Positions 1,355 to 54,504 of a stretch of 64,000 bases of DNA are shown piece after piece (position 1 is the first letter of the stretch; every line of letters starts with the position of its first letter). The position numbers were made by a program, and so were the translations under genes. The DNA comes from Eledone cirrhosa. Lineage: Eukaryota. Location: contig CAXHJY010000403.1 in assembly GCA_964016885.1 (NCBI GenBank), positions 13,035 through 77,034 on the forward strand, given 5' to 3'. The notes under the pieces are model-generated. The model was given only the letters and a program-made list of their open reading frames with translations, had not been told where the DNA came from and did not search any database.

Positions 1355-1635
1355 TATAGAATGGGAAACGAAAAATCAGTCTTACTGAAACCCCAGAAAG
1401 AGTATATGCTCTGAAATCAATAGACGTGTCCGAGGAACCTGCTAGTCCAGAGTCAGGTCGATCCTTACACAGATCGCACCTAGAGCTGTTCGCCGGGGAA
1501 ACAATTGTAACACAATAAATTGAGTTCAGATGCATCACTGATTTTTCGTTTTCCATTCTATAATACTCTGCTCCGTAGGAGCATAGAGTGCTCAACCGGC
1601 ATACCGCCTATAGAAACATCTTAGCTACCATTAGG
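1355..1635 (+). mobile_element. HHR-containing short element, copy 2, with 5' inverted tail copy
   Basis: gtgt-CCGAGGA-long stem II-GAAAC-aatt-GTA-acac-AATAAA at 1426-1519; 1355-1380 is the reverse complement of 1537-1562 with one mismatch. Confidence 0.7.
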
Positions 1636-1637
1636 CA

Positions 1638-2230
1638 TATATATATATATATATATGCCTATATATATATATATATATAGGTATATATATATGCCTATAT
1701 ATATATGCCTATATATATATATATATATATATATATATATATATGCCTATATATATATGCCTATATATATATATATATATATATATATATATGCCTATAT
1801 ATATATATATATATGCCTATATATATATATATATATGCCTATATATATATATATATAAATATATACCTATATATATATATATATATATACCTATATATAT
1901 ATATATATATATATACCTATATATATATATATATATATATATATATATATATATATATATACCTATATATATATATATATATATACCTATATATATATAT
2001 ATATATATATACCTATATATATATATATATATATATATATATATATACCTATATATATATATATATATATATATATATGCCTATATATATATATATATAT
2101 ATATATATGCCTATATATATACATATATATATATGCCTATATATATACATACGTATGAATGTTGTGTGTGTGTGTATATATATTATATATATCTATATTC
2201 ATATATATATATATATATGTATATATATGA
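1638..2230. repeat. (TA)n microsatellite with gcct/acct interruptions
   Basis: Direct reading. Confidence 0.95.
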
Positions 2231-3227
2231 ATAACTAAATAAACAAAGAAATAATGAAGATACTGCTCCAGCATGGTCGCAGCGAAATGACTGGAACCAG
2301 CAAAAAGAAGGAAAGAAGGGGAAAGAAATGAATAAATAAAAACTATATGAGAGACATGCCCAGTCGTGGTCCCATGCAATTTGTGAGACGGGGTGAAGAG
2401 TGCGAGAAAGTGCTTGAAAGAGAAAGAGGCCGTATAAACTGATTAGAGGAAACCAATGTGAAGGGGGTGAAGAGGACGGGAGGAAGAGGAAGACGTGGTG
2501 GTGGTGGTGGTAGTAGTGGTGTCATCATACTAAATTAATGATGACGAGCGAAAGTGAAAACTGACAAAGGCATCCGATTGTGCAGAGCGTGAGTGACAGA
2601 GAGAGAGAGAGAGAGAGAGAGGGGGGGGGGAGAGACTAGGAGAAACATGTGGACGTGAGATGACAAGGAGCGGGGAGAAAGAGAGTAAGGTAGAGAGATA
2701 GATGGGGATAGAGAGAGAGAGAGAGGTAAGAGTTAGAAGGGAGAGAGAGTAGAGGAGAATGATAGTGGTGTAGAGAAGCAGAGATAGAAAGAGATGTTCG
2801 GGAGAGAGGAAAAAGAAATGGGTGTGGGTCTGTTTGTGGTTGACTGCATTGATGGTGCCATTGTAACCAGAGCCCCATCAGTTGAGTGCCATCAAAACCT
2901 ACTGATCCTAATCAAGATATAATTAGGGTTCTCTCCCTTTCTTTTCTCTCTTCTACACCTCACCCTGGTCCTTCTTCCATAAAGAACGGGACACAGTTTA
3001 CACGGATGTGCAAGTGCGCACACACCGACAGACAGTCAGACAGTACACAGTAGAGCAGTGACAGACATACAGACAGTACAGAGTAGAGCAGTGACAGATA
3101 GACAGACAGAAATACAGATATTACCCACTGGGACATTGATAAACAGACACACAGACAGACAGATAGACTGACATGATATAAAAAGTCAGGGCACGTCAAA
3201 ATACCAAACACTTTATCATTATTGTTT

Positions 3228-3360
3228 TTCAAATTCCACCGAGGTTAACTTTGTCTTTCATACGGGATCGATAAAATAAAGTACCAGTAATGCACTGGGA
3301 CAGATTTAATCGACCCCGCCCCAATTGCTGGCCTTGTGCCTATTTCAGAAACCATTATAA
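3228..3360 (+). mobile_element. 5'-truncated tRNA-derived SINE (Nin/Deu-core type)
   Basis: ttcaaattccaccgaggttaactttgtctttcat...gataaaataaagtaccag...ggccttgtgcc matches the full copies at 7031 and 60638. Confidence 0.8.
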
Positions 3361-3540
3361 TTATTATTATTGCAGCTGGCAATTGACTAATGGAGGTAGT
3401 ATTGCCGAGAAAGGACTCCAACAAGGAGTGGAGGGAGAGACGTGATAGAAAACTTCAGGCTGGTAGTACTGAGAAAGAACCCCAACTAGGGACTGTGACA
3501 GAAAACCTCTGAACACAGAACTGAACGTTTTGGCAATGTT

Positions 3541-50134: not shown

Positions 50135-52732
50135 TATACACACACATATATATATACATATATATATATACATTAAATATAGATATATACATATATATAT
50201 ACATATATACATATATACATATATACATTAAATATAGATATACATATATATATATATACATTAAATATAGATATACATATATATATATATACATTAAATA
50301 TAGATATATACATATATATATACATATATACATATATACATATATACATTAAATATAGATATACATATATATATATATACATTAAATATAGATATACATA
50401 TATATATATATACATTAAATATAGATATATACATATATATATATATATACATACACATATATATATACATACACACATATATATATATACATACATACAC
50501 ATATATATATATATATACATACATACACATATATATATACATACACATATATAGATATATACATGTATATATATATACATATATATATATACATATATAT
50601 ATATATACATATATATATATATATACATATATACATGTATATATATATACATATATATATATATATACATATATATATATATATACATATATATATATAC
50701 ATATATATATATATACATATATATATATACATATATATATATATATATACATATATATATATACATATATATATATACATATATATATATACATATATAT
50801 ATATACATATATATATATACATATATATATATACATATATATATATATATATATATATACATATATATATATATATATATATATATATATATATATACAC
50901 ACACATACACATTATATATATATATATACATACACATATATATATATATATATATATATACATACACACACATATATATATATATATATATACACACACA
51001 CACATATGTAATGTACACTACTCAAGTACTTGTACAGGTTTGCGCCAAACACTTACAGACATGCATATACGAACACACACAACATATACACCTCCAACAT
51101 TGCTTTATTTCCTGTCTGACAGTTTTGATATTCCCCATCATATATTGTATTATATTCCACCTCAAGACCCACTCCCCTTGCTTCACTTTCTGTCTTTTAT
51201 TTATATTTATTTAGTGCAAGATTGAAGGAGGCGTGGAAGGGGACCCCCCGACGGATATATTTTCATCCATGGATTTTTAAAATATATATATGCCAGCTCT
51301 GAATATTAGGTTCAACTTCTCATCATATTGGTGCGAAAGCTCGTTAGTAGAAAATGTTACGAGATCCAACTCCTATTGTTGCAAAGACATCACTATATAC
51401 ATACACACAAAGGTACAACTGTGTGTACTCATTATATATACACACACACACACACATTACATATATATGATTATACAATATATATATATACACATTATAT
51501 ATATATATATATATATATATATACATAATATATATATATATATATATATATATACATAATATATATATATATATACATAATATATATATATATATATATA
51601 TACATAATATATATATACACAATATATATATATATACACAATATATATATATATATATATATATATACACAATATATATATATATATATATATATATATA
51701 TATTACACAATATATAAACATATATATATATATATTACACAATATATATATATATATATTACACAATATATATATATATATATATACACACAATATATAT
51801 ATATATATATATAATATATATATATATACACAATATATATATATATATATATATATATATAATATATATATATACACAATATATATATATATATATAATA
51901 TATATATATATATACACAATATATATATATATATATAAATATATATACACAAAATATATAAATATATATACATAATATATATATATATATATATAATATA
52001 TATATATATACACAAAATATATATATATATATATAATATATATAATATATATATATATATACACAAAATATATATATATATATATAATATATATAATATA
52101 TATATATATATACACAATATATATATATATAATATATAATATATATATATATACACACAATATATATATATATATACACACAATATATATATATATATAT
52201 ATACACAATATATATATATATACACAATATATATATATATATATATACACACTATATATATATATATATACATACATACATACCTACATATATATATACA
52301 TGCATACATACATATATATACATACATATATATATACATATATATATATATATATACATATATATATATATACATATATATATATATATATACATATATA
52401 TATATATATACATATATATATATATATACATATATATATATATATACATATATATATACACATATATATATATACATATACATATATATATACACATATA
52501 TATATACACACACACTATATATATATATATACACACTATATATATTTATATATATATACACACACTATATATACATATATATACACACACACTATATATA
52601 TATATATACACACACACTATATATATATATATACACACTATATATATTTATATATATATACACACACTATATATACATATATATACACACACACTATATA
52701 TATATATATATACACAATATATATATATATAC
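50135..52732. repeat. Two large compound TA microsatellite blocks (unique spacer about 51005-51435)
   Basis: Direct reading. Confidence 0.92.
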
Positions 52733-53111
52733 ACATGTTTTAAGACTGGTACAATGTTATCACATGACAAATTATATATATATATATGGGGGGGGGGGGG
52801 GGCTAGCCTGTCTTCTCTCCAGCAAATTTCTTTCAGGGAAGGATCTAGAGTGAGAGAATGTATGTGAGAAAGAGATACAGAGGAAGAATTGACCCCAGAA
52901 CAAGATATCGAATGCATGAAAGGCAAAGTTGACCTCTTCGCGATTTGAACTCAGTGTCGAAACGAATACCGCAAAGCATTCTATCTGACGTTCTAATGAC
53001 TGCCAGTTTGTCGTATATATGTGTGTGTGTGTGTGTGTGTATTGTATAAATACGTGTGTGTGTGTGTGTATATATATTGTATAAATATATGTGTGCGTGT
53101 ATGTATATATA

Positions 53112-53805
53112 TCATAATCTATAAAGCTCAGTGTGTGGTCATGCTCCTTCGTTATAGAAATCTACGATATAGAATTTCTTCAATTGAAATTTACAATTCA
53201 TTATTCGAAATAGCTTCGATTGCGTCTTGACGCAGATAATTTTTTCAATTTCACCTACAATTACGCAAAAAATAGATAAAACTCAATATTTTACGATTTT
53301 TCTCTCTCATTTAAACTGCTGAACTCTTTCTACTACCATTCAAAATCTATACAACTTCATACTTTCTGCTACTTTCTCTTTCCAAGCTTGATGGAGATAC
53401 TGTCCGTTCACACCACTCCCTACTGTCTTAAATTTAGAAAACACATATCCTCTATGAGGTCACTAAACCTGCTAGAAACAACAGCTAACTCTCCCTCATA
53501 TCACAACCCTCCCTACTGTCTTAAATTTAGAAAACACAGACAACCATGCAGAACTCCATCGCAGCTTTGTTGTTCGGCTGGCATCGTCTACGTGCGTGTT
53601 GCGCAAGTACTGTGAAACAATAAATTTCAACACTTTTTTGCACAGAGATAATATCCATAGGCGAAACTACAATTGTCACTGCTGGCGCAGCTCATGCTTC
53701 CAGGTCTGCAATTCATTCACCCAAAAAAGTGCTGCCATAAAATGGGTGGTGCAACCTAACTTTGGTAACTTAATGACCCCGAGCAACGCCGGGCTTTAAT
53801 GCTAG
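53112..53805 (+). mobile_element. Non-autonomous Helitron
   Basis: A|TCataatctataaag start; 3' cccgagcaacgccggg hairpin then CTAG|T; same 3' end as 62023-62656. Confidence 0.7.
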
Positions 53806-54131
53806 TATTGTATAAATATATGTGTGTGTGTGTGTATGTATATATATATTGTATAAATATATATTTATGTGTGTGTATATATATATTGTGTGTGTGTGTG
53901 TGTATATATATGTGTATATGTTTATATATATACACAATATATATATATACATACATATACATATATTTATATATATATACATATACATATATATATATAT
54001 ATACATATATTTATATATATATACATATATACATATACATATATATATATATATACATATATTTATATATATATACATATATACATATACATATATATAT
54101 ATATATATATACATATATATATATATATATA

Positions 54132-54504
54132 TACGATATTAAATAAATGGAAACTATATTTATAAAACCATATTTATTTCATTATATATATTTCAGGGAT
54201 ATCATATTAACAATATGCTATGCCTTCCTCAGACAAAATACAATATAGACAGTTTTATAGATAAATAGATTTGACATACCGTTCAACATCGACTTGTATT
54301 TGAAAAGTTGATTTGACTGCCAAATCAACTTTTCAAATACAAGTCGATGTTGAACGGTATGTCAAATCTATTTATCTATAAAACTGTCTATATTGTATTT
54401 TGTCTGAGGAAGGCATAGCATATTGTTAATATGATATCCCTGAAATATATATAATGAAATAAATATGGTTTTATAAATATAGTTTCCATTTATTTAATAT
54501 CGTA
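54132..54504. repeat. Perfect 184-bp-arm palindrome with 5-nt loop (actgc)
   Basis: 54132-54315 versus 54321-54504, no mismatch seen by eye. Confidence 0.95.
54396..54461 (+). ncRNA. Type I hammerhead (mirror copy at 54175-54240, minus strand)
   Basis: tattttgt-CTGAGGA-aggcatagcatatt gtt aatatgatatccct-GAAAT-atat-ATA-atgaaata; U15.2-A16.2 covariation; AATAAA overlaps the 3' arm. Confidence 0.7.

Follow-up and report, generated by a model that had tools for sequence, protein, structure and literature searches.

The window analyzed here, a 64,000-nt stretch of the Eledone cirrhosa genome (contig CAXHJY010000403.1, from a 3.0-Gb assembly), is AT-rich, abounds in (TA)n tracts, and carries eight sites at which an element is accompanied by an inverted copy of part of itself. 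We conclude that each site is probably an insertion of a Penelope-like element (PLE) or of a ribozyme-bearing derivative, composed of two 5'-truncated copies placed head to head in (TA)n, one ending at a short terminus (T1) and the other at a long terminus (T2), with twin priming on the same RNA at two fixed sites as the likely origin. The layout is real and has already been described, as the consulted parts of two earlier studies show (PMC8557442; PMC3846280); what our analysis adds is a quantitative handle on its mechanism.

A first-pass annotation of the window had reported inverted repeats in unrelated elements, an observation that is confirmed in part. All eight repeats were recovered by self-comparison with simple repeats masked and by pairwise alignment, and each belongs to a dispersed family. 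The families are lettered by site: A (47028), B (1355), C (5535), D (54132), E (14929), F (28772), G (20440), and H (6964). First-look searches returned 2281 candidate matches for A, 3166 for B, 2033 for C, 192 for D, 549 for E (core), 3291 for F, 26 for G, and 3167 for H. The eight sites do not match one another, with the sole exception of a 33-nt likeness of 88% between the families at 5535 and 20440.

Each family has two fixed outer termini, and the two arms of an insertion take one of each. T1 and T2 lie 34 to 157 nt apart (157 nt in A, 74 in B, 34 in C, 86 in D, 35 in E, 107 in F, and 40 in both G and H), and a one-sided tail of 34 to 157 nt is found in all eight families. Copies were sampled as the best 40 per search. 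Among 127 distinct head-to-head pairs from families A to F, 112 combine T1 with T2, while 7 are T1+T1, 2 are T2+T2, and 6 have an intermediate end. We also used core-only queries, which lacked the tail and (except in A) the junction and left out the window copy; these gave 57 pairs, comprising 49 T1+T2, 5 same-end, and 3 intermediate pairs (P = 2e-10 for 49 versus 5 against 50:50). Four of these five same-end pairs are T2 arms split at T1 by a later insertion resembling a short interspersed nuclear element (SINE). For family D, two short core-only queries returned no match, and its 25 copies, 2 of them local duplicates, come from a query with tail and junction and are biased accordingly. Eleven of 13 close copies of family G are head to head, and the 8 whose two ends both coincide with termini of the family are T1+T2 without exception. 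The insertion targets are (TA)n tracts, and reads from two other samples that cover a family D arm pass from the T1 end into (TA)n (5256 and 5922 reads), with strand-switch joints too few for a breakpoint census. A search of four read runs for the empty site at 46470-47410, where the flank itself is repetitive, found no joint skipping the element.

The extents of the two arms bear on how the inverted one was made, since a single molecule that folds back must leave one arm as a sub-stretch of the other. Of the 112 T1+T2 pairs, both arms run to the end of the reference in 25 and stop within 10 nt of each other in 17. A further 29 are nested and the remaining 41 non-nested, the tail-less arm extending further 5' and the tail belonging to the other arm. 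The T2 arm of 11 pairs consists of nothing but tail and has no base in common with its partner.

The sequences of the arms are also linked within insertions. With overlapping bases trimmed and CpG columns dropped, minor variants are shared by the arms of one insertion in 14 of 131 cases in family A (0.7% between insertions), 47 of 169 in B (4.3%), 27 of 46 in D (7.9%), and 42 of 149 in F (6.3%), and none of 300 shuffles reaches the observed concordance in A, B, C, D, or F. Sharing persists when the arms are more than 300 nt apart (12 of 82 variant columns in A and 19 of 63 in B). Private variants are mostly one-armed (in A, 12 of 120 occur in both), indicating that the arms were not homogenized wholesale. 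In family G, four arrays were read on both sides, and in every one of them the two sides have the haplotype peculiar to that locus. The shared variants and matching haplotypes fit one RNA template and also one active source per cell.

When copies are compared within families, the inner breakpoints vary from insertion to insertion while the outer ends are fixed, which settles a point that the first-pass annotation had raised. Among 59 called junctions outside family D, 16 have at least 2 nt of microhomology, 4 have one nt, 6 are blunt, 14 hold inserts of 1 to 5 nt, and 19 hold longer inserts. Microhomology of at least 2 nt is thus present at 16 of the 26 junctions lacking an insert, against 16% by chance, and 20 of 24 inserts longer than 5 nt (D included) contain at least 8 nt of family sequence. 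Inner breakpoints cluster upstream of the ribozyme cut in B (about -155 to -170 relative to T1) and D (-188), at about -121 in E, and at -288 in C, and we infer that these clusters mark RNA 5' ends. The ribozyme cut itself was rejected as the 5' limit of the cDNA, as just 3 of the 186 inner breakpoints come within 3 nt of its predicted position, though the queries favor long arms.

Long copies reveal what several of the families are. Between inverted ends 3 to 5 kb apart, family A copies L031-L033 encode a reverse transcriptase (RT) with YRDD followed by a GIY-YIG domain; RWK, DKT, a CxCX5C linker, C-terminal GIY-YIG, and (TA)n targets are all present, that is, all the Hydra-clade marks tested. 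Long copies of family B carry the CxCX5C linker and GIY-YIG and lie in (TA)n, with RT not seen in them. Those of family E (L220 and L221) have YLDD, a CX4CxxC linker, and GIY-YIG, with core and tail just ahead of the start of the open reading frame (ORF), and the CX2-5CxxC linker precedes GIY-YIG in L221. Pfam gave no RT match in five proteins and a GIY-YIG match in one of them (E = 0.0078, below the cut-off). On their motifs, families A, B, and E are identified as PLEs with an endonuclease (RT plus GIY-YIG in A and E, the GIY-YIG part in B), and the PLE origin presumed in the first-pass annotation is borne out by these long copies and by the inverted, 5'-truncated ones. Families A and B appear Hydra-like, while E would be of Neptune/Nematis type, a motif-based rather than tree-based placement in which the two clades are left undistinguished. 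Relative to the Hydra clade as the consulted parts of PMC8557442 present it, family A shares RWK, DKT, the linker, GIY-YIG, and (TA)n, and B shares the linker and GIY-YIG; family A differs in that its hammerhead is degenerate and the ORFs seen are broken. At one locus (L258), a 29-nt piece of the family E pseudo-long terminal repeat (pLTR) has expanded to more than 45 tandem copies.

Families C, D, F, G, and H are treated as non-autonomous. Tandem non-coding units with a type I hammerhead occur in G (310 nt, up to 8+8 units), H (366 nt), and C (partial tandems), which makes these three families retrozyme-like by their unit structure. Three family G arrays each have one central inversion, with about 6+6, 8+8, and 5+3 units of 310 nt, and end in T1 and T2 as PLE insertions do; the two largest are palindromes of 3.7 and 5.0 kb. 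Their arms are so alike that the arrays are probably young:
C2:124283000-124291000 (L222), C2:31790000-31798000 (L223), and C4:7388000-7396000 (L224): family G arrays, arms 98-100% alike.

Within the window, the inverted-repeat arms are 1355-1380/1537-1562 (family B), 5533-5625/5743-5838 (C), 6963-7034/7291-7364 (H, where the left arm resumes at 7214-7248 past an inserted SINE-like repeat), 14926-15048/15251-15372 (E), 28772-28851/28899-28978 (F), and 47025-47108/47268-47351 (A), while the family D site at 54134-54502 is a 99.2% palindrome. The repeat reported for family G, 20440-20470/20500-20528, is not an inverted tail copy; 20440-20528 forms the extended stem I of the ribozyme that this family carries, and other copies have it too. 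The earlier statement that the sense tail overhangs its inverted copy applies at 1355, 5535, 14929, and 54132, and fails at 47028, 6964, and 20414, where the tail is on the inverted arm (about 153 nt at 46872-47024 in family A, beyond the bounds first given for the element, and 35 nt in family H). The parts of the eight insertions are the following:
1355-1380, minus strand: family B inverted arm, ending at the short terminus T1 and abutting (TA)n.
1387-1562, plus strand: family B sense arm, 3' end of a putative Hydra-like PLE; long copies L215 and L217 have the CxCX5C linker and GIY-YIG upstream of it.
1426-1513, plus strand: type I hammerhead motif of family B, within the loop; its core is CCGAGGA, stem II is long, and stem III is palindromic.
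1563-1634, plus strand: family B tail, about 72-74 nt, to T2.
5533-5625, minus strand: family C inverted arm, running to T1; the junction shows microhomology of 3 nt.
5623-5838, plus strand: family C sense arm, from a tandem-unit, apparently retrozyme-like family.
5654-5695, plus strand: family C hammerhead motif, a U3/A8 core variant; in the loop.
5839-5873, plus strand: family C tail to T2.
6963-7034, minus strand: outer part of the family H inverted arm, which includes the 35-nt tail (T2).
7021-7214, plus strand: putative SINE-like repeat within the family H inverted arm, so labeled for its many dispersed window copies and short flanking duplications at other loci.
7214-7248, minus strand: family H inverted arm, inner part.
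7263-7695, plus strand: family H sense arm, a 366-nt unit and a 67-nt partial tandem, ending at T1.
7518-7561, plus strand: family H hammerhead motif, core CTGATGA; a deletion shortens stem III here; outside the hairpin.
14926-15048, minus strand: family E inverted arm ending at T1.
15087-15250, minus strand: family E's own GIY-YIG-coding piece, in inverted-arm orientation (antisense), 96-97% to L220 and L221.
15251-15372, plus strand: family E sense arm, pLTR end of a putative Neptune/Nematis-type PLE; no hammerhead in the window copy.
15373-15407, plus strand: family E tail, 35 nt, to T2.
20414-20430, minus strand: true inverted arm of family G, corresponding to 17 nt at the T2 end that the sense arm of the window copy lacks.
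20427-20630, plus strand: family G partial monomer of the 310-nt tandem, apparently retrozyme-like repeat, ending at T1.
20440-20528, plus strand: family G hammerhead with extended stem I, core 20470-20476, C3 to T in the window copy; z = -6.3.
28772-28902, minus strand: family F left arm with the whole hammerhead motif (core at 28898, cut at 28820); no tail of the family follows it.
28903-28978, plus strand: family F right arm, truncated inside stem II; its T1 end precedes (TA)n.
46872-47024, minus strand: family A tail on the inverted arm; family length 157 nt.
47025-47106, minus strand: family A inverted arm core.
47117-47348, plus strand: family A sense arm ending at T1, from a putative Hydra-like autonomous PLE; degenerate hammerhead-like motif, core at 47177.
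54132-54315, minus strand: family D inverted arm ending at T1; hammerhead motif, core 54232.
54316-54504, plus strand: family D sense arm; hammerhead motif, core 54404, cut 54453.
54505-54590, plus strand: family D tail, 86 nt, to T2.

Several other features of the window touch these insertions. The SINE-like repeat at 7021-7214 also occurs at other loci (L026, L123-L125, L130, L243, and L252), repeatedly in the AT-rich stretch at T1, where it separates tail from core. An older relative of family B (71%) with its own tail occupies 1081-1294, 60 nt upstream of the B copy. Beside the family A insertion, 46470-46851 is a high-copy repeat with a terminal GC-rich hairpin closed by CTAG, reminiscent of Helitron-type 3' ends. 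Further elements with inverted arms lie at 36548-38471, 39305-39596 (whose left arm has a tail of 70 nt and whose family copies differ in their arms), 45195-45620, 49187-49676 (38-nt inverted arm, symmetric ends, no hammerhead motif found), and 52733-55393, which encloses the family D copy. Tandem arrays are present at 3541-4232 and 58213-59103, with units of about 30 and 66 nt.

Hammerhead motifs were detected with a type I descriptor and by conservation in family alignments. Rfam at its gathering score found no hammerhead match in the window, and its E-value scans were swamped by (TA)n. The descriptor returned six window motifs (one in C, two in D, one in F, and two outside the cited sites) and none in the reversed window; clean motifs outside the cited sites stand at 345-396 (+) and 20691-20756 (-). 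The B, G, and H motifs, which it missed, were read from the alignments, in which the core is kept in 42 of 46 B, 55 of 60 G, and 43 of 43 H matched copies; the family C core TTGATAA is present in 20 of 20. The family A motif is degenerate, with a conserved core and poor stems I and III, and family E has only a core-like relic upstream, absent from the window copy. Folds of single motifs gave a significant z-score for G only, and a weak or palindromic stem III is expected of dimeric motifs. Many motifs have a mismatch at the base of stem II. Core variants recur throughout whole families, TTGANAA (U3/A8 covariation) in 16 and CCGANGA in 5 of the 66 motifs of the genome sample described below, and at window position 5660 as well.

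The first-pass annotation had placed the ribozyme at or near the apex of the resulting hairpin, a feature that our comparison does not sustain. The ribozyme lies in the loop at 1355, 5535, and 47028 (degenerate), is split at the apex at 28772, and is absent at 14929. At 54132 each stem contains it, some 86 nt from the apex, and the motif is fully paired in the predicted hairpin; at 6964 it falls outside the hairpin, some 270 nt from the apex. The predicted cut site is 50 to 140 nt upstream of T1 in families A to D and F, and the motif falls in the loop, falls in a stem, or is cut through because the arm lengths alone decide, the motif being near T1.

The proposed association of hammerheads with inverted repeats was confirmed in an 800-kb genome sample (20 blocks of 40 kb at fixed positions on contigs C1-C7, the smaller chromosomes lying outside it). 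The sample contains 146 local inverted repeats and 66 hammerhead motifs (1 in the reversed sequence) at 41 loci, of which 22 are in inverted repeats; 2000 shifts averaged 5.4 and never exceeded 14. This enrichment is a by-product of the motif lying near T1. A strict descriptor places a motif in 25 of the 146 repeats, in both arms in 10 of the 25. One end at a microsatellite and the other 13 to 200 nt from one characterize 65 of the 146 repeats, compared with 3.3% of random spans.

Several other origins for the inverted arm were weighed against these data. Fold-back or self-priming of one molecule, whether the first cDNA or an antisense RNA, is a published hypothesis (PMC3846280, in the part consulted) and resembles the shared fold-back or template-switch step of the first-pass annotation. 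The arms do share variants, short palindromes and microhomology occur at the apices, and the 29 nested pairs together with the nested copies of family D are compatible with it. Yet fold-back of a single molecule is excluded for the 41 non-nested pairs among the 70 informative ones, 11 of which lack a shared base (47028, 6964, and 20414 are non-nested examples in the window); it also leaves unexplained the exact stop of the copied arm at T1, and family D, mostly nested in a biased sample, does not discriminate. We consider this origin improbable; a template switch is compatible with the data if two independently primed cDNAs anneal to each other, not if one molecule folds back. Two separate RNAs or ribonucleoproteins could instead prime at the two target ends, with the pairing set by protein geometry and the shared variants by one dominant source locus per germ cell. 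That would explain non-nested arms equally well, accommodate family E, and suit a predicted dimer that could hold two RNAs (PMC11167929, in the parts consulted). It is unlikely in our judgment, given the rare variants common to both arms even more than 300 nt apart, which are expected from one template if not proof of it, and given that each family G array has its own haplotype on both sides.

Miniature inverted-repeat transposable elements (MITEs) or foldback DNA transposons inserted at TA would account for the inverted ends, the TA context, and the near-constant size in family D and part of E. Where the first-pass annotation had named fixed terminal repeat lengths as their sign, we found ends made asymmetric by a fixed tail that can sit on either arm, arm lengths and junctions that vary per copy, and long copies that encode RT and GIY-YIG and no transposase. 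These features refute such an origin for families A, B, E, F, and G and leave it a negligible probability overall. The enrichment of motifs in inverted repeats and the long predicted hairpins might also suggest a selected RNA device, either a source of double-stranded RNA or a self-processing hairpin. The motif is free in position, however, and in 10 of the 25 sampled motif-bearing repeats it occupies both arms, where it would be base-paired within a hairpin. Breakpoints rarely fall at the cut site, the motif is damaged in several copies of the window, and such a device is highly improbable. An assembly fold-back artifact was ruled out by different flanks, asymmetric ends, and per-copy junctions, and independent neighboring insertions by the fixed head-to-head orientation, the one-of-each ends, and the shared variants.

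Twin priming on one RNA, our preferred explanation, could proceed as follows. A PLE protein, possibly a dimer, would nick both strands of a (TA)n tract; one target 3' end would start reverse transcription at T1 and the other at T2 of the same RNA; each cDNA would terminate prematurely or run to the RNA 5' end; and the 3' ends of the two would then pair over a few matching bases, each priming the second strand of the other. A circular or multimeric retrozyme RNA copied in this way would yield head-to-head arrays. According to the consulted parts of PMC11167929, the PLE protein of Poseidon PAc (Anolis) nicks and extends both strands in vitro, uses two internal RNA start sites spaced by the tail, dispenses with the ribozyme, and is predicted to form a dimer. 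We see an even chance that endonuclease-bearing (EN+) PLEs normally integrate by such pairing, each target strand taking its own fixed start site on a single RNA molecule; this route would make the inverted pLTR and the tail, solve second-strand synthesis by mutual cDNA priming, and write multi-kilobase head-to-head arrays on circular retrozyme RNA in a single event.

A number of observations weigh against this explanation. In the consulted parts of PMC11167929, both strands used both start sites alike in vitro, with no strand difference. Families E and F each contain one true T2+T2 pair, and about a third to half of core-only matches have no partner arm within 1.5 kb; these include long copies, copies set right against (TA)n, and two with 8 to 9 nt of the T2 end. 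The 29 nested informative pairs and nearly all family D copies also fit fold-back, and the samples of best copies lean toward window-like ones. Family E has no arm concordance (2 of 38 versus 3.4%, reached in 71 of 300 shuffles), and concordance elsewhere could also reflect one active source locus per cell or gene conversion. Inserts rather than microhomology occupy 33 of the 59 called non-D junctions, the caller being rough and 20 junctions uncalled. The window copy of family F has no family tail on either side and 64 nt of unmatched sequence instead. No autonomous coding partner was found for C, D, F, G, or H, the tblastn matches near some loci not being colinear with the units.

The insertions closely resemble known EN+ PLE units, which consist of an inverted 5'-truncated copy and a one-sided tail of 30 to 40 bp (PMC8557442 and PMC3846280, in the parts consulted). 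Head-to-head orientation, 5' truncation, partial tandems, a tail at one end, and (TA)n targets are common to both, as are candidate hammerhead motifs in the terminal repeat of families B, C, D, F, G, and H. The tails here measure 34 to 157 nt and many insertions are stubs of 200 to 500 bp. The origin of the inverted pLTRs and tails is called open in the consulted part of PMC8557442, and the one-of-each pairing and non-nesting counted here argue against the self-priming model in that of PMC3846280. Poseidon PAc likewise has two start sites spaced by the tail, uses both strands, and dispenses with the ribozyme, whereas the consulted parts of PMC11167929 are silent on inverted arms and on the pairing of sites.

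In the twin priming known from L1 elements, a single RNA likewise serves as template for both target ends and microhomology joins the cDNAs, but these cover separate parts of the RNA, and the second site varies. Here, by contrast, both cDNAs would copy the same end from two fixed sites.

Retrozymes are described as parasites of PLEs in the consulted parts of PMC7761336 and 10.64898/2026.07.22.740005. Families G, H, and C match the animal non-LTR (long terminal repeat) retrozymes portrayed there in being tandem non-coding units with a type I hammerhead; family G differs in forming two divergent arrays around one inversion with T1/T2 ends. The inversion and PLE-type ends point to insertion as a whole rather than the local amplification by unequal crossover discussed in the consulted part of 10.64898/2026.07.22.740005. 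Our literature search found no proposal of PLE twin priming or of head-to-head retrozyme arrays, its coverage not extending to older Penelope reviews, most subscription papers, and supplements (including PMC11167929 Fig. S2, on genomic ends).

Extrapolated to the 3-Gb genome, our sample corresponds to roughly 10^5 each of such inverted repeats and hammerhead motifs. Stubs of this kind resemble MITEs, which matters for annotation. The counts give sharp predictions for the existing in vitro PLE system, and the head-to-head retrozyme arrays tie retrozyme mobilization to the PLE machinery through the anatomy of their insertions.

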